Shown: positions 10,403 to 53,559 of the stretch, piece after piece
How positions within the stretch are numbered: the first letter of the stretch is position 1
How the letters are laid out: every line of letters begins with the position of its first letter
Source of the DNA: a virus
IMG/VR virus record: IMGVR_UViG_2675903591_000001
Coordinates: 5,429 to 69,428 of that record
Length of the DNA stretch: 64,000 nt
Direction: 5' to 3' (one strand)
The notes under the pieces: generated by a model
Told to the model about the DNA's origin: nothing
Seen by the model: the letters and a program-made list of their open reading frames with translations, nothing else
Database searches by the model: none
Made by a program: the position numbers and the translations under genes

Positions 10403-10612
10403 ATGCAAGACGTTGATGAGCTTAAGCGAGCGGCCGCAACACTCTTTGTCAAAGCTATTCAGCAGAATCGTGGTGATTACGGCTCCGCGAGCACTGTAGA
10501 AGCGGTAAAGCAAGGGTGTTCGACGATGACAATAAGCCACGACGGAACTATATCGGCCTACAAAGATGGTGTGCTGAGAGTGCGAATGGGTAGCCTTGTT
10601 GGTGATTCGTAA
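10403..10612 (+). CDS. hypothetical small protein (69 aa)
   Basis: ORF following a 350-bp structured non-coding region. Confidence 0.4.
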   Translation: MQDVDELKRAAATLFVKAIQQNRGDYGSASTVEAVKQGCSTMTISHDGTISAYKDGVLRVRMGSLVGDS

Positions 10613-10740
10613 TGATTCCATACATCTCAGAATTTAGATCCACACCACGCACCTAACCTTGGTGCTCGTGACAAGATTTTTTAGCTTTGCAGTATCAATG
10701 CCCCTCGAAGGGCTACATATAAAATACAAAGGAAAAACAC

Positions 10741-13774: not shown

Positions 13775-13836
13775 AGAGTAAATGAAAAAGGCTCCTATGT
13801 AGGAGCCTCATTTCTGGTCGAGCGGGATAATGAAAA

Positions 13837-14010
13837 TTATCCGATACTTACTGGCTTTACGCCTTTCTTTGGGCCGACCATATCCATGTCTTTCTCTTTC
13901 TGGCCAACCTTTGCAAGTTTATTGCCATCGATAGACGACCAAAAATCCAGAGAGCGTTTAGCCCCAGCCATCGCCTTATCAGAAGTAATTCGTTTGCTTT
14001 GCTTAATCAT
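13837..14010 (-). CDS. small Lys-rich protein (57 aa from MIKQSKR)
   Basis: - strand ORF within an island of reversed orientation. Confidence 0.35.
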   Translation of the reverse strand: MIKQSKRITSDKAMAGAKRSLDFWSSIDGNKLAKVGQKEKDMDMVGPKKGVKPVSIG

Positions 14011-14102
14011 TTTGTCACCTCTTTGGCCAAAGCCTTCATGAACAATTTTACAACAGTTGCGTTCATTAAACAAACAACCCAATACGCCACATATGTGAGG
14101 GG

Positions 14103-14675
14103 TTATTCTTCATCAGGGTCAATTCCATTAACCTTGATTCGAATAGTGTCGAGAACATCAATCACATCGGCAGACATCTTTGTGAAATCATTCCATACTT
14201 GGGCGAACCCGTAACTACGATAACGCGGTTTCGCTTCTTCTGTCGGGTCTTTAAGGTAAATGGTGTCAAGATCTGCCATCTCGCAGAAGGTTGTTGCGTA
14301 AATTAGCGCAATGATAAGTACATTGCCTGTTAAGTCCGTCTCTTCATGGGCGATAAAATTCTCTAACATGCAGATAGCAAACTGCTCACGGAGCACATCA
14401 TATTTGCAGATAATTACTGCCTGAAGACGTTCAGGTTCATCGCGGTCGATCAGCTTCAATGTTATATCGAGGATTCCATCAACGGCGTTGCCGTTGTAGG
14501 TTTCCATAGCCCATCGCCAATTCAAGTTGCTCTGAACGGTTCCAGCCTCAAGTAGACGTCTTTCCTCTTCACTCAAAATGCCTACTGAGATATTAGTCCA
14601 ACCGATGATCTCAATGGCTTCCTGTGTGGTGGCCAGGCATTGCTCATGGATTTGCTGTATGGATAAGTCGCTCAC
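14103..14675 (-). CDS. hypothetical protein (190 aa), - strand
   Basis: long ORF with no recognisable motif; lies beside the recombinase module. Confidence 0.5.
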   Translation of the reverse strand: MSDLSIQQIHEQCLATTQEAIEIIGWTNISVGILSEEERRLLEAGTVQSNLNWRWAMETYNGNAVDGILDITLKLIDRDEPERLQAVIICKYDVLREQFAICMLENFIAHEETDLTGNVLIIALIYATTFCEMADLDTIYLKDPTEEAKPRYRSYGFAQVWNDFTKMSADVIDVLDTIRIKVNGIDPDEE

Positions 14676-14800
14676 TAAATGGTTCCCTTTAGCTTGATTC
14701 CCTTCGGCAATTGTATCTCCAGCCCCCTTTAAAGTTAATCTATTAACTTCTACACAATCAGCCTGGATAAAATGTCAAAATTCAAGAAACGAGCCTTTTA

Positions 14801-14829
14801 TGATTCCATACTTATATAGTATGGAATCA
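14801..14829. repeat. 29-bp inverted repeat TGATTCCATAC-TTATATA-GTATGGAATCA (11-7-11; 12-bp arms if the spacer is read as TATAT), a candidate recombinase target site
   Basis: perfect arms; lies 46 bp upstream of the tyrosine recombinase start; no T-run, so not a terminator. Confidence 0.5.
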
Positions 14830-14874
14830 TTGTAAAATCCGAGCTATGCTGACCCTAAAAAAGAGGTTTCGCAT

Positions 14875-16005
14875 ATGCGCAGTGATTTTGATCTGGCTAA
14901 GGCAGCAGAGAACTGTTCCGCAGAGACGATCGCGTTTTTGCAGACCGTCATCGAGTCGCCGCTTGACCAGCTGGAAGATTTCAGTGATTCCGACCCGGCA
15001 TTCAGGAAAGCATTCATGCTTTTCACTCGGCTATCTTTGTTAGTGACTCGCCGCCGACCCGAGCTTGGTGTCCACTGTATTTTGATACATGTTTTGCCTA
15101 AAATTGGCGATCTTCCTCTGTCCAAAATCACAAAAGTGGTCGTTAACCGGCTGACTAACCCGCTGATCATGGAAGGCAAAATTGTTCAGGGAAAACGTGT
15201 CTTTTCCATAATGAAGCAATTCCTAGCCTGGTGCGTGTTTCAGGGGTATCTAGAGAACTCACCAGTTGGCGACATTCCACTGAACAAAGTTGGTGGCTCA
15301 AACCCTAAGCCCAGGGAGCGCACTCTAACCGACGCTGAAATCTGGGTGTTCTGGCATGTATGGGATTACTTCGAAGTCTGCGAGGTGACGCGCTGGGCTG
15401 CCAGATTGACGCTTGCTGCTGCTCGACGCCCTGACGAGATACTACGTGCAAAATCCGCTGAGTTTGACCTCACCAATAACATATGGAACCAGGGTCGTCG
15501 CAACAAGTCGAATCGAGACCACCGGTTGCCCATCAGCCCGATTATGAAACTCTGTATCGAACGGCTGCTTGCCGCTGGCGAGGGGAGCGAATGGCTATGC
15601 CCATCTAATAAGAAAGCGGGCCGACCGATGTCTAAGGTGGCCATCAGCCAATCTCTACGCCGAATCCTTGAAACACCTGAAATGCTTGCGCTTGAGCCTT
15701 TCACTCCGCGTGACCTCCGCAGGACTGCAAGAAGCTGCCTGGCAAGCTTGGATGTACCGAGTGACGTATCAAGAAAGGTTTTAAATCAAAGCCTTGAAGG
15801 CATAGATCGTGTATACGATAGGCACGACTATATAGATCAAATGCAAGAAGCACTGTACAAATACTCAGTATTTTTGTTTAATATAGTCGAAAGCGAGGGG
15901 GTGGAGGATTTGAGCCACAAATACAAAGGCGACCGCCTGGATCTCTCAAACAGTCGCCTTGGGCTTGGTGTCGTTAATTTTCGATTGCGGCAAGTATCTT
16001 CTTGA
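14875..16005 (+). CDS. int: tyrosine recombinase / integrase
   Basis: C-terminal catalytic signature FTPRDLRRTA ... H ... VYDRHDY (R-H-R-Y) and an Arg-rich core. Confidence 0.8.
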   Translation: MRSDFDLAKAAENCSAETIAFLQTVIESPLDQLEDFSDSDPAFRKAFMLFTRLSLLVTRRRPELGVHCILIHVLPKIGDLPLSKITKVVVNRLTNPLIMEGKIVQGKRVFSIMKQFLAWCVFQGYLENSPVGDIPLNKVGGSNPKPRERTLTDAEIWVFWHVWDYFEVCEVTRWAARLTLAAARRPDEILRAKSAEFDLTNNIWNQGRRNKSNRDHRLPISPIMKLCIERLLAAGEGSEWLCPSNKKAGRPMSKVAISQSLRRILETPEMLALEPFTPRDLRRTARSCLASLDVPSDVSRKVLNQSLEGIDRVYDRHDYIDQMQEALYKYSVFLFNIVESEGVEDLSHKYKGDRLDLSNSRLGLGVVNFRLRQVSS

Positions 16006-16354
16006 GCTTTTCATCTGAAAGAGTGCCGGATGCTTTTGTTTTGTCTCTTAAGGCATTGATTATCTGGCGCTCTTCGTCACTTAGACCAGGGAGGTTTTTC
16101 TTTATGAATTGGTGGATGACCGGGTATCGTTCTTCCAGCACCAGCATCATAAAGCGGGTCTCATCTGTGCTAAGAGCTTCAGCGAGAAGGGATACTTTTT
16201 CCAATGGCATCGGCAGTCGGCCGGTTTTGATATTGGAAAGGTTGTTTGCGTTTTCGTAGCCAATCTCAGATGCGATCTGAGTCTGGGACTTTGGGGAGGT
16301 CAAAATTAGCCCCTCAATAAACGCTGAAATGCGGTTACCTTTTTTAGCGACCAT
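15974..16354 (-). CDS. XRE-family HTH transcriptional regulator (CI/Cro-like)
   Basis: helix-turn-helix KSQTQIASEIGYENANNLSNIKTGR; divergent from a 250-bp AT-rich control region. Confidence 0.7.
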   Translation of the reverse strand: MVAKKGNRISAFIEGLILTSPKSQTQIASEIGYENANNLSNIKTGRLPMPLEKVSLLAEALSTDETRFMMLVLEERYPVIHQFIKKNLPGLSDEERQIINALRDKTKASGTLSDEKLKKILAAIEN

Positions 16355-16609
16355 AATATATTTTTTTCCTGCTTACTTATGCGAAATAATTCTTAATAGA
16401 GAGGTGTCATTTGCACCATTGCCCTGAGTGTATTACCGGCTAGAAAGTAAGTAAAGGGTTATCCCTGCATAACGATAAGTAACCCACTAACTATTCAGAA
16501 TACGCCCATATCTCAAGGCGTAATGAGAATTGTTTTTGATATAAAACCTTTGATTTTTGTTACATACCGTATAAGATGCCGCCTCATTAAATAAGAACTG
16601 TCTCAAAGG

Positions 16610-19249: not shown

Positions 19250-19285
19250 CCGATAAAGATAAGTAGGCAGCTACTTATCTTTTTA
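19250..19285 (+). terminator. hairpin AAGATAAGTAGGC-AG-CTACTTATCTT followed by TTTT
   Basis: inverted repeat then a T-run after the vWA gene. Confidence 0.5.
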
Positions 19286-20564: not shown

Positions 20565-20764
20565 GCAAAGGCTGCTTTGGTTCACTGATAGCAGCCTCTG
20601 AAACTAATCCCGTTTGCATGGCATGTTCCAGCAAGCGGGATTGCTTCGTTAAGGCACAAGAGACCGCTATCAAGATTTACGGGAAGTTCGCTGGCTTCCC
20701 AAACGACAAAATAAAAAAGACAAGTAAGGCAAAAGCACATGAAAGCATTAATGGTACGAACTGA
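20561..20764 (+). CDS. small Cys-containing protein (67 aa)
   Basis: ATGA-coupled; overlaps the dnaE N-fragment start by 26 nt. Confidence 0.35.
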   Translation: MSKGCFGSLIAASETNPVCMACSSKRDCFVKAQETAIKIYGKFAGFPNDKIKKTSKAKAHESINGTN

Positions 20765-23096
20765 CTTCTCCCTGGGTGAGTCGTCTTTGAAGGCAGAGCG
20801 CGCCGTAGAGAAAGCCCGCGAAATGGGTTACTCGTCGGTGATCTCCGCTGACAGCATGAATCTGGCATCCGTAATCCCCTTGCAGATGGCGGCTGGTGAC
20901 GATGTCGCGGTCATTTGTGGTGTAAAGCTGAACCTGGTTGACGATCCTACATACGAGCACCGCGCTCGACTCGCTAAGGAGTCTAAAGGATGTATGGAAT
21001 CATTAACGCGCGCGCGCAGCTACAGCTTCACGGCGCTCATTAAGAACGAGCAAGGTTATGTCGATCTCTGCGAACTGATGACGCTGGCAAACACACGCGA
21101 GCAGTTTTATCACGTTCCCCGTCTTGAGCTGGCGCAACTGCTGGCGACGTTCGCCAAAGGCAACATCATCCTGCTGACCTCGGACATGGGAAGCGTATTC
21201 CAGCGCCCGGACTTCGCGAAGATTATCGCCCAGCTGGTTCACGCTGGCGGCCGTGAGAACTTTTACTGCGCCGTTTATCCGATTGCTACCCCACTCTATG
21301 ACCAGCTGAATAGCAAAGCGCTCAAGGTGGCCAGTGCTCTTAAGATCGAGCCGGTGGCGTTCTACCCTGCTTACTACGAGGCTCCCACTGACGCTGACAT
21401 CAAAGACATCGCGCATATGGTGCTGAACAACATCAAAATCGACCAGCTGCACCGTATGCGAATCCCGTATCAACGTGACAATGGCGTTAATGATCGCCGC
21501 CACTTACTCCAGCTATTGAAGGAGTTTGCGGTGCGGATGGGTGTCAACGTCACGCCAGCAATGGTCTCAACAACTCAGGACGCGATCATTGATGCGTGTA
21601 CATGGCGCTGGCACCCGCTGGAACCCGCTTTACCAACCATGGCAGATGATGAGCCAGCCACATTGCGTAAACTCGCTGTAGAGGGGCTGAGGAAGCGTCT
21701 TAGCACCAAAGAGTTCGGCTATGCACCACCAGCCACAATGCACCGTGATTATGTTGAGCGCCTGAAGTACGAACTTGATGTTTTAACCCGCCTTGGCTTC
21801 TGCGGCTACTTCCTCATGGTTCACGACCTGATGAATTACGCTCGCGGCGCCGGGATTCCTGTTGGGCCTGGCCGTGGTTCATCCGCTGGCTCTCTTGTCG
21901 CCTGGTGCGTGGGGATTACAAACGTAGACCCTATTCGCCATGGATTGCTGTTCGAACGTTTCATTAACCCTGAACGTCTCGACTTGCCCGATGCTGATCT
22001 GGACTTTAGCCAGGCACGTCGTCACGAGGTCATTGAGTACCTGGGTGAGCGTTACGGGGAGGATTACGTCGCTGGCATTCCCAACTTCACATACCTCGGT
22101 GCAGCTTCAGCACTGCGCGACACCGCACGTATCTTTGGCGTGGATTCAGCGGATATGGCGGTATCGAAAGACCTGCGCTTTGTCGATGACGATTCACTGT
22201 CACTCGAAGAGATGCGCGAAGAGCTTTCCAGCCTGGACAAATACGCAGCCAAATACCCGGACGCATTTAACGCGGCCACCAAATTGCAAAGTCTCATGCG
22301 CGGATTCGGCCGCCACGCAGCTGGCATGATCGTAGCCGGTGTGAAACTGACAGAGCGCACACCGGTCGAGCGACGCGGGGATGCGCGTGTAATCGCTTTT
22401 GACAAGCGTTACTGCGAATCCATGGGATTGATTAAGTTGGACGTGCTAGGTCTCGCTACGCTCGATCTGCTGGCTTATGCGCAGCAATACGTGAAAGAAG
22501 CCACGGGAAGCGTGATTGATCTCGATGCAATTCCACTAACTGACAAAAAGGTTCTTGATGGCTTTGCCGGTGGCCACACCCAGGGCGTGTTCCAGCTTGA
22601 ATCAGGATCGATGCGTAAGCTGCTAAAGGATCTGGGCGGCGGCATTGATCCGATGAGCTTTGAAACAGTTGTCGCCACGACAGCATTATTCCGACCTGGC
22701 CCGATCGAATCTGGAATGTTGGACAGCTACGTTTCGGTGGCCAAAGGCTTCAAAGAGGCTGATTCCATCCACCAGGTACTCGATGAGCTTACCTCTGAGA
22801 CCAATGGGGTAATTCTCTTTCAGGAACAAACCATGAAGGCCACGCAGCTGCTGGCCGGCTTCACGCTCGCGGAAGCTGATGGCGTCCGAAAAGCGATCGG
22901 TAAAAAAGACATGGAGAAGATGAAGAAGGTCGGTAACCAGTTTATCGAGCAAGCCCAGGCCGGCTGGATAGAGGTGAAGCTGGAAGACGGAACCACTCGC
23001 CAGTTCCACCGCGCGGAGCACTTCAAATGTGCCGATGGCAAGCTGCGAACCATCGAAGAAGCAATGCACGATGGCGCCGACGTTCTGGGCATCTAA
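20739..23096 (+). CDS. dnaE: DNA polymerase III alpha subunit (DnaE), N-terminal fragment: PHP, palm, thumb and most of the fingers
   Basis: PHP motifs at the N-terminus; palm GRGSSAGSLVAWCVGIT ... DPI; DLPDADLDF catalytic aspartates; finger region ending RKAIGKK. Confidence 0.8.
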   Translation: MKALMVRTDFSLGESSLKAERAVEKAREMGYSSVISADSMNLASVIPLQMAAGDDVAVICGVKLNLVDDPTYEHRARLAKESKGCMESLTRARSYSFTALIKNEQGYVDLCELMTLANTREQFYHVPRLELAQLLATFAKGNIILLTSDMGSVFQRPDFAKIIAQLVHAGGRENFYCAVYPIATPLYDQLNSKALKVASALKIEPVAFYPAYYEAPTDADIKDIAHMVLNNIKIDQLHRMRIPYQRDNGVNDRRHLLQLLKEFAVRMGVNVTPAMVSTTQDAIIDACTWRWHPLEPALPTMADDEPATLRKLAVEGLRKRLSTKEFGYAPPATMHRDYVERLKYELDVLTRLGFCGYFLMVHDLMNYARGAGIPVGPGRGSSAGSLVAWCVGITNVDPIRHGLLFERFINPERLDLPDADLDFSQARRHEVIEYLGERYGEDYVAGIPNFTYLGAASALRDTARIFGVDSADMAVSKDLRFVDDDSLSLEEMREELSSLDKYAAKYPDAFNAATKLQSLMRGFGRHAAGMIVAGVKLTERTPVERRGDARVIAFDKRYCESMGLIKLDVLGLATLDLLAYAQQYVKEATGSVIDLDAIPLTDKKVLDGFAGGHTQGVFQLESGSMRKLLKDLGGGIDPMSFETVVATTALFRPGPIESGMLDSYVSVAKGFKEADSIHQVLDELTSETNGVILFQEQTMKATQLLAGFTLAEADGVRKAIGKKDMEKMKKVGNQFIEQAQAGWIEVKLEDGTTRQFHRAEHFKCADGKLRTIEEAMHDGADVLGI

Positions 23097-23168: not shown

Positions 23169-24338
23169 ATGAAAGTTTTAGAGACGATTTCCACGAAGCC
23201 CGGACTAAGCGACAGCAAAGCAAAAGAGATCTGGGAAGCGTTTGAGAAAAACGGGGCGTATCAGTTCAACAAATCTCACTCAGTGGCTTACTCGCTGATT
23301 AGCTATCAGTCGATGTTCATGAAGACGCACTACCCTGCCCAATTCTTCGCAGCAGCGCTGACTATTTTGGGTGATGACAAGCATCAGGGGCTGGTTAAAG
23401 ACGCTCTGAGCTTTGGCATTCGCATCTTGCCACCAGATGTAAATATCTCGACCAACCGCATTGAGATCCGCCAGATGGAAGACGGTACGCAAGTGCTGTA
23501 TGCGCCCTTCTCAGCTGTTAAAGGATGCTCAGAGAATGGATGCCAGGCGATCATGCGCGCCCGAGCGAAAGTGGGAGGCCATTTCACCGACATCATGCAG
23601 TTTGAAGAGGCGGTTGAGAAGCGCGCCTGCAACAGTCGTGTTCGTGATTCTCTCGATCGTGTCGGTGCATTTGCCAGCATCATCCCCGGCAGCTTACCCG
23701 CAACTTCCGAAGAGCGTCGCCGTGACCAGGCGGAGCTGATGGGTAATCTGGTGATCGATGCGGTAAAAGCGACACGCCGGTTTGAAATGAACCTGAAACG
23801 CCAGGCTGAAGTAAACGTGCTGATGACGAATATGGCCGCTGAAATGGGGCTGGGTGATGAGCTTATCCGTCCGAGCATCGGCATCAAACCACGCTTGATG
23901 ATCATCCTCGACAACGCCAACGGTAACGATGGAAAAACCGGCTACTTCATGGAGAACGGTTATGACGACTTCAAGGCGAAGTTGCTGGTTGCCGGTGATC
24001 TGAAGATGGGCGATTTGTACGTTACCGGCGTTTGCAAGAAGGTGAAGGACAAAGAAAAGGACTACACCAAAGACGAGTTAGGCCAGTTTAACGAGTTCAT
24101 CAAAGCAGAGGTGGCTTTGGTACGACCAACGTACATTCTTACGTGCGGCGCCAAGTCCACCAGCCTGTTTAACAACAAATCGAAGCCATCAGATCTTGTT
24201 GGCCGCAAAGAGTATCTGCCGGAGTTGGATGTCACGGTATTCTATGGCTTTAATCCCAACATTCTCCACTTCCGCCCAGAAGAAGGCGAAAAGCTGGAGT
24301 TGATCCTCGCTGACGTTGCCGAGGCAGTAAATTCGTGA
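23169..24338 (+). CDS. dnaE: DNA polymerase III alpha subunit, C-terminal fragment (end of fingers, HhH, divergent tail)
   Basis: YQFNKSHSVAYSLISYQSMFMKTHYPAQFFAAALT and ILPPDVNIS match the DnaE region after the fingers; has its own SD (AAGAGG) and ATG. Confidence 0.7.
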   Translation: MKVLETISTKPGLSDSKAKEIWEAFEKNGAYQFNKSHSVAYSLISYQSMFMKTHYPAQFFAAALTILGDDKHQGLVKDALSFGIRILPPDVNISTNRIEIRQMEDGTQVLYAPFSAVKGCSENGCQAIMRARAKVGGHFTDIMQFEEAVEKRACNSRVRDSLDRVGAFASIIPGSLPATSEERRRDQAELMGNLVIDAVKATRRFEMNLKRQAEVNVLMTNMAAEMGLGDELIRPSIGIKPRLMIILDNANGNDGKTGYFMENGYDDFKAKLLVAGDLKMGDLYVTGVCKKVKDKEKDYTKDELGQFNEFIKAEVALVRPTYILTCGAKSTSLFNNKSKPSDLVGRKEYLPELDVTVFYGFNPNILHFRPEEGEKLELILADVAEAVNS

Positions 24339-35490: not shown

Positions 35491-35721
35491 GATCCAAAAA
35501 GAGAGCGGTTACTGGCGCGCAAAGGGCTTTAAGCGTGAAGGGAACGAAGAGCTTCTGGATCGCTGGGACTGCACCATCACCTTCAAGCGCAAGCAGTGGC
35601 AGCACTTTGATAAGCTGAAAAACGAAATGACGATCACCGCACCAACACTCTTTGGGCTTCTTAAGAAAATCATCTAATTGGTTATCAAGAATTGACTGAG
35701 GTATGTGGCTTTTACATACCG

Positions 35722-35950
35722 CAGTCAATGGCGTTTGCCGAAGTACGCAACTCTACATACCGCAGTCAAGAAATCACATATTCTGGTTGGTTCAGGGTGG
35801 TTTTCATTGACTGCGGTATGCGTATTACGTATCGCAGTCAAGATGGGATGTGAGACGCATATCTCAGTGAAGATTGCATACCGCAGTCAATATTACATAC
35901 CGCAGCAAACAAACCGCATATCGCAGTCAATAAACTGCATACCTCAGTCA
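35722..35950. repeat. iteron array, 9 copies (consensus ACATACCGCAGTCAA, one inverted), downstream of repA; equivalent to the incA copy-number control locus
   Basis: copies near 35725, 35756, 35800 (inverted), 35827, 35861, 35879, 35896, 35914 and 35935. Confidence 0.75.
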
Positions 35951-36967
35951 ATTTTCGGGTTTGGATTTAGCGAGAGCTTCTGCCAGTTTGACGGGATCTA
36001 TACCTGCAGTTTTCAAAGCCTTAATGACTTCGTCGTAGTTCTCTTCTGACGGCGGCTGCTCTTCAACCTTTTGTTTAGGCAGCTTAGAAGTCTGGATCAG
36101 CTTCGGATTGCGGTAGTGAACGACGAAGAAGGTGGAGTTTCCGCGTTTAGTTTCAGTGTATTCGAGGTACCCGATTTCTTTCAGTTGCTCCATGGCCTTT
36201 CTAACAGTGTGATTTTGCGTGTAAACGCTTGAAGTCAGGTTAAGCCGGTCACGAAGGCGCTTCATCGAAATGGGAGCGTGGTTCTGGGGTAGACTTTCAA
36301 TGAAGGTGTATAGAGCCTGGGCTGATTCTTTACGTGGCAGTGCATCAATGGCTTTAAGTCGAAGCAGCACACGCCTGTCCATGTCATAGAGTTCGAAGAG
36401 TTTAGGCTCAGCTTCAATTTCAACAACGTTTTCAACGACATCGTATGAGGCTGATTTTACCAGGTGTGTCACCCACCCTTTCGTATCGTTCTGGAACTTA
36501 AGCGTTACGGATGCCAATTTAAACAGGGAGTTACTGATACGATCTCGCATCTTCTGGTTGGAGCGCCGGCTATCGAACCCACACATCTTAACGAACTCGA
36601 CAAACGTGAGCTTAAGCGCACTTCCCTGCACCCCATGCTCAGCCATTGAGCGAACGATCCCCAGCCATACCTTGAAATCAGTGTCCATATCCAAACGTGA
36701 CCCTGTAATTTTCACGTCGTTGTAGCCTTCGCTCTTGGCTATGGACAACTGGACAAGTTCTTCGGTCGCATCTGTGATATTTTTACGGTTAGTCTTGCTC
36801 TTACTCGTTGATTTCAGTGTAGGAACAAACAGGCCGAGACGCATGAGAGGAACCGGCTGAACAGTGCTGGAGCTGTTAATATCCAGTGAAACAATCTCAC
36901 CTGTCGATTTGTTTGTTTCTTCCAAATTCATCGGTAAGGTTTTGGATTTCTTGACCATTTCATGCAC
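35948..36967 (-). CDS. repA: iteron-binding replication initiator (RepA-like)
   Basis: 339-aa protein flanked on both sides by arrays of the same 15-19-bp repeat (5 upstream, 9 downstream), the P1 RepA/incC/incA architecture; call is by context. Confidence 0.65.
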   Translation of the reverse strand: MHEMVKKSKTLPMNLEETNKSTGEIVSLDINSSSTVQPVPLMRLGLFVPTLKSTSKSKTNRKNITDATEELVQLSIAKSEGYNDVKITGSRLDMDTDFKVWLGIVRSMAEHGVQGSALKLTFVEFVKMCGFDSRRSNQKMRDRISNSLFKLASVTLKFQNDTKGWVTHLVKSASYDVVENVVEIEAEPKLFELYDMDRRVLLRLKAIDALPRKESAQALYTFIESLPQNHAPISMKRLRDRLNLTSSVYTQNHTVRKAMEQLKEIGYLEYTETKRGNSTFFVVHYRNPKLIQTSKLPKQKVEEQPPSEENYDEVIKALKTAGIDPVKLAEALAKSKPEN

Positions 36968-53537: not shown

Positions 53538-53559
53538 TGTAGGTAGTTAACTACCTACA
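53538..53559. repeat. 22-bp perfect palindrome TGTAGGTAGTTAACTACCTACA, archetype of the TAGGTAGT-NN-ACTACCTA family
   Basis: perfect dyad directly abutting the GAGGA SD of the methyltransferase gene. Confidence 0.6.

Follow-up and report, generated by a model that had tools for sequence, protein, structure and literature searches.

What function is served by a perfect inverted repeat that lies directly upstream of a tyrosine recombinase gene on a phage-plasmid? We addressed this question for a stretch of 64,000 nucleotides from IMG/VR virus record IMGVR_UViG_2675903591_000001 (positions 5,429 to 69,428; hereafter the window, with coordinates counted from its first letter). Here, the palindrome ATGATTCCATAC-TTATATA-GTATGGAATCAT (14800..14830, no strand assigned) precedes an open reading frame (ORF) for a 376-amino-acid (aa) tyrosine recombinase (Int; 14875..16005, + strand), and we interpret it as the inferred core site of this enzyme. 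Palindrome and gene together probably, though by no means certainly, form a Cre/loxP-like, self-regulated resolution or recombination module.

The 11-bp arms and 7-bp spacer given in a preliminary description of the locus were present, with one or two further base pairs per side. The repeat can equivalently be written with 12-bp arms around the spacer TTATATA, or as a perfect inverted repeat of 13-bp arms and a 5-bp spacer, ATGATTCCATACT-TATAT-AGTATGGAATCAT; its end lies 44 bp from the ATG at 14875, and not 46 bp as originally given. Perfect inverted repeats with arms of at least 11 bp and a spacer of up to 10 bp occurred five times in the window compared with 0.1 times in Markov-1 shuffles, and three of the other four resemble terminator hairpins. 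A terminator or hairpin reading of the palindrome itself was rejected, as neither strand has a T-run after the stem and the element was not called by a terminator scan. An origin or terminus signal was likewise discarded, as there is no GC-skew extremum at the palindrome and the iteron origin is 21 kb away. Neither Rfam matches nor tRNAs, looked for at the arm sites, were found in the window.

We scanned IMG/VR with the pattern ATGATTCCATAC-N7-GTATGGAATCAT and recovered 100 contigs with exact arms, many of them 100–114 kb in length. At every locus with enough DNA, a homologue of Int (57–100% identity) starts 44–101 bp from the palindrome, and the gene order is palindrome, int, an XRE homologue behind it and CobT beyond. 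The arms are invariant while the flanks align at 62% mean column identity, such that conservation in relatives, the check proposed in the preliminary description, was borne out for both the arms and the adjoining recombinase gene. The proposed lox-type geometry was also constant: relatives have 11–12-bp arms plus a 7-bp spacer, and across more than 220 loci the spacer length is always 7 bp with arms of 11–15 bp. The spacer sequence is lineage-specific, the main types in int orientation being CTACTAT, CTATTAA, TTGGTAG, TTGTAAG, TTATATA and TATGTAA, among others.

The association extends to very different genetic contexts. Three Chimaeribacter contigs carry the same palindrome together with an Int at 74–76% identity in a non-phage context that lacks XRE, where the neighbours of Int are an old yellow enzyme, a luciferase-like monooxygenase, UvdE and DUF3750. 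A second arm type, TGACTCCAGAC-N7-GTCTGGAGTCA, differs by two substitutions per arm, mirrored between the arms, around a spacer of again 7 bp, and sits 45–150 bp upstream of int, the same position as the window type. Its carriers are Pantoea and Rahnella megaplasmids (0.45–0.72 Mb), Ewingella and a Providencia phage-plasmid, and the Int proteins encoded beside it share 42–51% identity with the window Int (approximately 48–50% for the megaplasmid and Ewingella proteins). Arm type followed Int clade with no exception, with TGATTCCATAC arms at identities of at least 53% and TGACTCCAGAC arms at 42–51%; one locus has an intermediate site, with an intermediate left arm. Arm type is independent of host family, both types being present in Yersiniaceae hosts. 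A degenerate-pattern scan of metagenome contigs returned 120 loci, and those without an adjoining Int comprised seven in which the site lies 2–123 bp from the end of the available sequence and one match (OIYP01001320.1, 5193–5221; L150) with the asymmetric arms TGACTCCATAC / GTCTGGAATCA, which is probably due to chance.

The neighbouring genes are wholly different between these contexts (including TonB receptors, PagP, H-NS, MCP and StcE), and both XRE and CobT are missing from the Chimaeribacter and megaplasmid contexts. Because the neighbours differ completely, Int is the only candidate common partner of the palindrome. Together, the co-occurrence in every context, the covariation of the arms with the Int clade and the constant geometry uphold the pairing of palindrome and recombinase that had been claimed, and based on the covariation we propose with high confidence that the palindrome serves as the recognition site of the adjoining Int. 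As a separate observation, CTATTAA and TTAATAG, two spacers found in each clade (L050, L131, L112/L160/L168/L182/L193/L214), are exact reverse complements of one another, implying that the asymmetric spacer was flipped relative to int more than once. We discounted spacer inversion as a signature of recombination, since template switching at palindromes can also yield reverse-complement spacers.

The recombinase consists of core-binding and catalytic domains preceded by a novel helical N-terminus. Pfam profile PF00589 (Phage_integrase) matched at 6.5e-8 (33 bits against a cut-off of 27.1 bits) and PF22022 at 24.5 bits, slightly under its cut-off of 27 bits, while the arm-binding domain PF13356 was found neither by Pfam nor in a comparison with P4-type relatives. 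An AlphaFold (AF2) model with a predicted local distance difference test score (pLDDT) of 83.9 similarly predicts an all-helical N-terminus followed by the core-binding and catalytic domains, and Foldseek returned lambda Int, Tn1549 Int, XerH and IntI at a probability of 1.0, with YopR/MrpR also matched. The residues assigned to the active site by motif alignment, R185, E188, K211, R282 and Y314, show no variation across 25 diverse homologues. In place of the first active-site His, all 25 have Arg279, and the second, present in most homologues, is Gln305 in the window's clade; retention of the Tyr nucleophile argues for catalysis, and the His substitutions leave it open. The family forms a tight clade down to approximately 45% identity, after which identity drops to 25–34% with P4-type integrases, and by sequence the recombinase classifies as a derived P4-type integrase without the arm-binding domain.

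We next turn to the replicons that carry the module. The window replicon is an SSU5/pHCM2-type phage-plasmid with genes for a DnaB-like helicase, a primase, an ATP-dependent ligase, GrxA, CobT/CobS-like proteins, dnaE and a Rep3-type RepA. Eight iterons of approximately 20 bp, T[A/G]CATACCGCAGTCAA, overlap the 3' end of the Rep3-family RepA gene and run beyond it (35713–35955; 35948–36967, − strand), and this region is the plasmid replication origin referred to above. Near-identical relatives in PLSDB are limited to two non-mobilisable plasmids of approximately 109 kb from Enterobacter and Cronobacter, and the best protein match is encoded on a 108.7-kb contig of Nissabacter archeti. The recombinase gene as such is present on 1012 PLSDB plasmids, its carriers being SSU5/pHCM2/pMT1-type phage-plasmids as well as Pantoea, Rahnella and Ewingella megaplasmids. 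A search of 5,426 complete E. coli genomes located the CTACTAT-type site in 206 of them, at one place per genome and always on a plasmid; the recombinase gene had 255 places, none of which is chromosomal. The complete Cyrano genome has one full site. A single symmetric site beside a simple recombinase on a large low-copy plasmid is the architecture of multimer resolution, exemplified by Cre/loxP in P1, and not that of an attP. The Cre/loxP-like dimer resolution put forward in the preliminary description thus fits the distribution (plasmids only, one site per replicon, no arm-binding domain), with strand exchange and dimer resolution being the steps that we infer.

From the direct observations, namely the site–gene association, the arm covariation, the plasmid-only single-copy distribution, the domain make-up and a break in homology described below, we propose the following model for how Int binds and acts on the site, resolves multimers and regulates itself, and for how the cargo slot arose. 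One recombinase monomer would bind each 11–13-bp arm, with the 7-bp spacer as the crossover region. The recombinase gene and its site would represent a self-contained two-part module, carried only by large low-copy plasmids, whose most likely job would be that of Cre/loxP for P1, i.e., recombining two direct copies in a plasmid multimer to yield monomers; terminally redundant phage DNA may be an alternative substrate that is likewise resolved to monomers. Occupancy of the right arm would cover the −35 element of int and thereby repress the gene, and occasional intermolecular crossovers at the site between related replicons would reshuffle the cargo slot to its left.

The arrangement of the int promoter is compatible with such autoregulation. 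The −10-like hexamer TATGCT (14845..14850, + strand) is part of a block of invariant columns at a fixed distance in six loci, lies 14 bp after the right arm and 13 bp after an invariant ATCATT block, and is invariant in the window's clade, with TAGAAT or TAAAAT at this position in the megaplasmid clade. Its sequence and position fit a −10 element whose −35 would reside inside the right arm, in which case int should be repressed whenever the site is occupied. In most phage-plasmid lineages, among them those of E. coli, Klebsiella and Salmonella as well as pMT1, the interval between palindrome and int contains a sigma-70-like promoter (TTGATC-17-TAATAT) together with a perfect LexA box (TACTGT-N8-ACAGT), as seen at L010, L031, most loci at approximately 60% identity, L108 (4960–4990) and L243. 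No such promoter is present in the 44-bp leader of the window's lineage. Cyrano has been reported to be induced by genotoxic stress (PMC9928086). The promoter overlap, the LexA box of most sister lineages and the solo arm copies described next did not feature in the preliminary description.

Single copies of the arm motif lie at conserved positions 4–6 kb to the left and right of the palindrome. Site A, GTGATTCCATACATC (8693..8707, + strand), is located at the stop of the DNA-ligase gene and the start of a small membrane-protein ORF (MIPYI...), and has one mismatch in the window's lineage while being exact in others. Site B, AATGATTCCATACATC (10611..10626, + strand), lies between genes and points toward the palindrome, and site D, AATGATTCCATACATC (20989..21004, − strand), is on the antisense strand 253 nt into dnaE. 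The 12-mer arm is exact at 10612 (+) and 20992 (−) and has one mismatch at 8693 (+), and all three copies extend to (A)ATGATTCCATACATC. The copies are syntenic in every Enterobacteriaceae lineage sampled: two on the left, on the + strand 1–7 kb away, of which one is at the ligase stop and the other intergenic (upstream of a tRNA cluster in Cyrano), and one on the right, on the − strand approximately 6.0–6.3 kb away in dnaE. Lineages at approximately 60% identity have a one-mismatch copy on the − strand within int. In the complete Cyrano genome, the exact 11-mer occurs five times (three solo copies and two arms), all within 9.2 kb, where 0.05 occurrences are expected. Every solo copy points toward the palindrome, a polarity that, with three or four sites, is only suggestive.

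Site D encodes a lineage-specific GCMESL loop and shows no synonymous variation, with the sampled dnaE N-terminal 253 residues being approximately 79% identical to those of the window; the Providencia dnaE homologue has neither the loop nor the motif. Solo copies of either arm type were absent from the Providencia plasmid, the megaplasmids and the Chimaeribacter loci. The solo copies are a lineage-specific addition at the DNA level, and they represent the core-type motif instead of a second, arm-type motif. Their nearest precedents are the adjacent DR1/DR2 accessory TnpI motifs of Tn4430 and the SPBRE sites of MrpR. Paralogous MIPYI... peptides were rejected as the source of the copies, since only site A opens a conserved ORF; sites B and D meet stops only a few codons on when the motif strand is translated, and the sequences cannot be aligned past the 15-mer. 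A role of the solo motif in RNA–RNA pairing was set aside because its identity with the Int arms would go unexplained.

Two further one-mismatch arms lack the ATC extension and are probably due to chance, ATCATTCCATAC at 14187–14198 (+) inside the 190-aa cargo gene described below and ATGAATCCATAC at 2169–2180 (−), the latter contradicting the polarity rule. At dnaE itself, a GCGCGCGCGCG run at 21008–21018 adjoins site D, and the gene is split in the window into a 785-aa ORF (20739–23096) and a 389-aa ORF (23169–24338), as opposed to a single 1168-aa gene in Cyrano; the split may be real or may reflect a frameshift or stop.

We tentatively consider it possible, if hardly probable, that the recombinase of Enterobacteriaceae SSU5-type elements gained a second, non-recombination use of its DNA specificity through the solo arms, which lie 2–7 kb to either side of the lox-like site (one in a tolerant DnaE loop and one in int) and all face it. 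They might act as SOS-tuned regulatory, roadblock or architectural sites that loop or insulate a lysogeny and replication domain of approximately 10 kb, or bias recombination to resolution; on the same tentative reading, the palindrome would double as the point of crossover through which plasmids exchange cargo, including the caf1 operon of Yersinia pestis. If true, the polar solo arms, with the one in dnaE showing no synonymous change, would point to a rare catalytically intact recombinase that doubles as a site-specific DNA-binding factor.

The cargo in question occupies a variable slot (13775..14799, no strand assigned) between a conserved 112-aa gene and the palindrome. In the window, it holds two hypothetical ORFs, one of 81 aa (13837–14082, − strand) and one of 190 aa (14103–14675, − strand; phrog_4350). 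Both the two − strand ORFs and the module boundary noted earlier on this side are real. PADLOC returned no matches for defence genes, and Pfam had none on the window's two cargo ORFs. Across lineages, the slot is bounded by GrxA or the 112-aa gene on one side and the palindrome on the other, and ranges from 98 bp ('empty') to more than 2 kb, being larger in pMT1. Its content elsewhere includes a 356-aa ORF in pCP102, a HEPN/Toprim-associated gene in the Cronobacter plasmid, an ars operon with a YafO toxin (Shigella) and a colicin-immunity gene with YafO (Klebsiella). In Yersinia pestis Antiqua pMT (L243, NZ_CP009904.1, 1613–7400), the caf1R-caf1M-caf1A-caf1 F1 capsule operon lies directly left of an intact palindrome and int. 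The slot of Cyrano holds a 184-aa moron gene with a reported expression 723-fold over local background (PMC9928086). A side observation comes from Chimaeribacter californicus (L004, 4984–5785), where a non-phage replicon carries homologues of the window's two cargo ORFs, at 54% and 63% identity, to the left of the palindrome, showing that one and the same cargo pair accompanies the site on very dissimilar backbones.

The left edge of the palindrome marks an abrupt break in homology. Within one site type, there is a single right-flank class versus 5–9 unrelated left-flank classes, and left-flank similarity is lost within 10 bp of the palindrome edge in 382 of 1010 pairs with homologous right flanks, compared with no breaks at the right edge in 298 pairs. 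Megablast homology of the window to its two closest plasmids begins 1–5 bp before the palindrome. The hexamer [CTA]AGA[AT]T is present in 31 of 64 mutually unrelated left-flank classes (interval −36 to −13; 29 at −25/−24) as opposed to 6 of 320 control windows. Its weak match in the window is CAAAAT (14775..14781, + strand), an accessory or promoter-like element approximately 25 bp left of the palindrome. The hexamer at −25 suggests that the replacing left flanks come from sister modules, as expected if crossovers take place at the site.

How does this arrangement compare with known systems? The module does not qualify as an attP/attB system, as Xer/dif or as an integron; functionally, it is nearest to Cre/loxP and also resembles TnpI/IRS. 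Like Cre/loxP of P1, it combines a phage-plasmid-borne tyrosine recombinase of core-binding and catalytic domains only with a single symmetric site per replicon that precedes the recombinase gene and comprises two inverted arms (13 bp in lox, 11–13 bp here) around an asymmetric spacer, with no need for accessory arm-type sites and with a presumed role in multimer resolution and cyclisation. The two differ in that no sequence relationship is detectable (Cre ranks 40th or lower in the fold search, E about 0.1), the spacer is 7 bp here and 8 bp in lox, and the site overlaps the int promoter 44–100 bp upstream of the gene, whereas loxP of P1 lies approximately 0.4 kb upstream of cre. In addition, the family has Arg for the first active-site His and has solo arm copies, and its activity is putative.

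In the TnpI/IRS systems of Tn4430 and Tn5401, the resolution site is found directly upstream of its own recombinase gene, binding also represses the promoter, and the ~12–14-bp TnpI motif is present twice in inverted orientation as the core and again as extra single copies, which in Tn4430 (DR1 and DR2) are directly adjacent, within approximately 100 bp and on one side only. The window module shares the site before its own gene, the reuse of the motif as single copies and the promoter overlap, but its solo copies are 2–7 kb away on both sides, with mirrored polarity and partly in coding sequence, and no transposon is involved. XerS/difSL and XerH/difH also pair one dedicated recombinase with an adjacent site of approximately 30 bp made of two inverted arms for dimer resolution, and XerH is the only PDB sequence match of Int, a weak one (E = 0.009), as well as a fold match. 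These Xer systems, however, are chromosomal and FtsK-linked with imperfect, asymmetric arms, whereas the present family is confined to plasmids, uses perfectly symmetric arms and has no Xer-like sequence.

Several considerations weigh against a Cre/loxP-like module. Recombinase activity is not guaranteed, given the His-to-Arg change throughout the family and the His-to-Gln change in the window's clade. A LexA box before int is unusual for a housekeeping resolvase and keeps a regulatory model alive, and the solo arm copies, which a lox-like system does not need, hint at a DNA-binding or regulatory role. With respect to the left-flank break, selection alone can also explain it, cargo replacement stopping at the first constrained base; a shared left flank joined to two different site/int lineages was seen in one clear case; and lineage-specific spacers should hinder Int-mediated exchange between lineages. 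The flank evidence is supportive and not conclusive, because selection alone could place the breaks and the shared flank is a single case. Finally, the searchable literature held nothing relevant on a characterisation of, or experiment on, this int and site in SSU5-type elements, or on the motif sequence.

The leading alternative is that Int is mainly a sequence-specific DNA-binding regulator of the MrpR/YopR kind, with the palindrome as its autoregulatory operator, the solo 15-bp copies as regulatory or roadblock sites that tie the replication genes to an SOS-controlled Int, and recombination secondary or lost. There is a precedent in MrpR (YopR) of SPbeta, a recombinase-fold master repressor that recognises a 15-bp element at about nine sites, keeps three of seven catalytic residues and does not recombine, its SPBRE sites being intergenic operators (PMC10516654). 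The resemblance includes the tyrosine-recombinase fold, with YopR among the fold matches, a 15-bp motif repeated in a temperate phage genome, and the location of the gene in a lysogeny region; the three to four conserved, syntenic solo copies of AATGATTCCATACATC match the several-copies pattern of MrpR. Further in favour of a regulator are the exactness and synteny of the solo arms in all Enterobacteriaceae lineages, their confinement to approximately 9 kb around the Cyrano palindrome, the invariant dnaE copy in a loop that is missing from the Providencia homologue, the LexA box and the two His substitutions.

Other features speak against this explanation, which we regard as unlikely albeit worth keeping in view. 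The catalytic Tyr, Lys and both Arg are invariant across the family, whereas MrpR lost most of its set; no lox-like palindrome is described for MrpR, and its structural similarity to Int is weak (template-modelling (TM) score 0.32). The strict 7-bp spacer between arms of 11–15 bp is the geometry of a recombination site. Moreover, the megaplasmid, Chimaeribacter and Providencia members have the palindrome without solo copies, which implies that the ancestral module works without them, and a lone autoregulated regulator without any further target makes little sense.

Two sets of replicons in which the module is lost or altered may be described here. SSU5 itself (L117, JQ965645.1, 9526–9762) lacks the whole grx–cargo–palindrome–int–XRE block, with a tRNA-Asn directly before cobT, in keeping with its description as virulent. 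Because it is a virulent phage and not a plasmid, SSU5 is uninformative on multimer resolution; it keeps solo sites A and D exact and B with one mismatch, and the deletion is probably too recent to inform on the loss of solo copies after loss of int. Large cointegrate plasmids were inspected for a split palindrome, and the site was intact in three. In K. pneumoniae pWDMF9A (L242, 927–2500), a 339-kb cointegrate, int is preceded by neither palindrome nor promoter nor LexA box, and a group II intron directly adjoins the gene, its reverse transcriptase gene ending 86 bp before int. Among the cointegrate plasmids inspected, none supported a plasmid fusion made by Int.

A capture platform of the integron or island type, in which Int inserts circular cargo at the palindrome and thereby builds the left slot, appears improbable to us. 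It would account for a slot that directly adjoins the palindrome in every lineage, whatever its size (98 bp to more than 2 kb, and larger still in pMT1), for the variety of its cargo (the Cyrano moron, the HEPN/Toprim-associated gene, YafO, the ars operon and caf1), and for left solo copies that are oriented as the left arm, like leftover junctions. However, the cargos examined carry no second full or half site, and thus no repeated site as in integrons, at their distal ends. The solo copies are found past conserved backbone genes, with one in dnaE and one in int on the opposite side, and their 'spacer' (ATC...) matches none of the palindrome spacers. The protein is not IntI-like in sequence, IntI being only a distant fold match.

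A further possibility, offered as an alternative in the preliminary description, is that a conventional integrase uses the palindrome as its attP core to insert the phage-plasmid into a chromosome. The gene is annotated 'site-specific integrase' everywhere, and its closest outside relatives are P4/CP4-57-type integrases (25–34% identity), which have the PF22022 and PF00589 domains in common with it. Those enzymes, however, carry PF13356, integrate at tRNA genes and use arm sites and excisionases, whereas the window family has a helical segment in place of PF13356 and a symmetric site, and is never chromosomal in E. coli (0 of 206 for the site and 0 of 255 for the gene). An attB-like copy without an adjoining int, which had been named as a further check, was not found in the metagenome scan, save for the asymmetric match mentioned above. 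Moreover, plasmid and megaplasmid contexts have the identical, perfectly symmetric site, which is thus not a hybrid attL or attR. Given these data, an attP core is very improbable.

Equally improbable is a palindrome that serves as operator of the XRE/CI-like repressor or a host factor, or as a transcript hairpin or terminator: its position between the cargo genes and int, where the promoters diverge, and the nearby helix-turn-helix (HTH) gene would suit such a role, but Chimaeribacter and megaplasmid loci keep the palindrome without XRE, the XRE control region has other repeats (TAAGTAA or GGTAAGTGCTTACC), 24 invariant base pairs are too many for an HTH dimer, the stem has no T-run on either strand, and arm type does not track host family.

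The repressor-like gene is best treated as a neighbour. This XRE/CI-like 126-aa regulator (15974..16354, − strand), a putative lysogeny repressor that adjoins the module in phage-plasmids only, converges on the recombinase gene with a 3' overlap of 32 bp and diverges from the operon of the 72-aa ORF, cobT, AAA-ATPase and dnaE downstream; its initial description as a divergent repressor holds for the 72-aa ORF/cobT operon and fails for int. Pfam found no HTH in it at E < 0.01, its sole Pfam match being a sub-threshold DUF3450, while PHROGs transcription-regulator families matched at 1e-6 and the Cyrano annotation reads 'putative repressor'. Because the gene is absent from many contexts in which int and palindrome persist, it is not, as had been suggested, part of the recombinase module. 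The repeated AAGTAA elements reported for its control region are present and conserved in close relatives: three TAAGTAA/TTACTTA repeats (16373..16482, no strand assigned), with TTACTTA at 16373–16379 and TAAGTAA at 16448–16454 and 16476–16482, lie between XRE and cobT and are presumed XRE operators, unrelated to the 14800–14830 palindrome. Other lineages have a GGTAAGTGCTTACC palindrome repeat in this control region instead.

In principle, the module is ordinary; what makes it noteworthy is its very wide distribution on medically relevant plasmids, the delimited cargo hotspot and the polar solo sites. Clinical E. coli, Klebsiella, Salmonella Typhi and Yersinia pestis commonly harbour SSU5/pHCM2/pMT1-type phage-plasmids, which carry resistance and virulence cargo, and the searchable literature contained no description of how their multimers are resolved or why their cargo builds up at one spot. 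If a Cre/loxP-like module is correct, a 31-bp site and its dedicated recombinase would account for the stability of this plasmid type and would mark the hotspot at which the F1 capsule genes of pMT1, arsenic-resistance and toxin genes and the Cyrano moron are found. The TGATTCCATAC and TGACTCCAGAC arms with their recombinases would, in that case, represent two orthogonal lox-like pairs and thus candidate genetic tools.

Two further palindromes in the window may be mentioned. Between cobT and the AAA-ATPase gene, a perfect palindrome with 12-bp arms, AAAGATAAGTAG-GCAG-CTACTTATCTTT (19255–19282), has arms containing GATAAGTA, which resembles the TAAGTAA repeats before the XRE gene, and could be a further XRE operator or a terminator. 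At 53538–53559, a spacerless 22-bp perfect palindrome, TGTAGGTAGTTAACTACCTACA, has an operator-like appearance.

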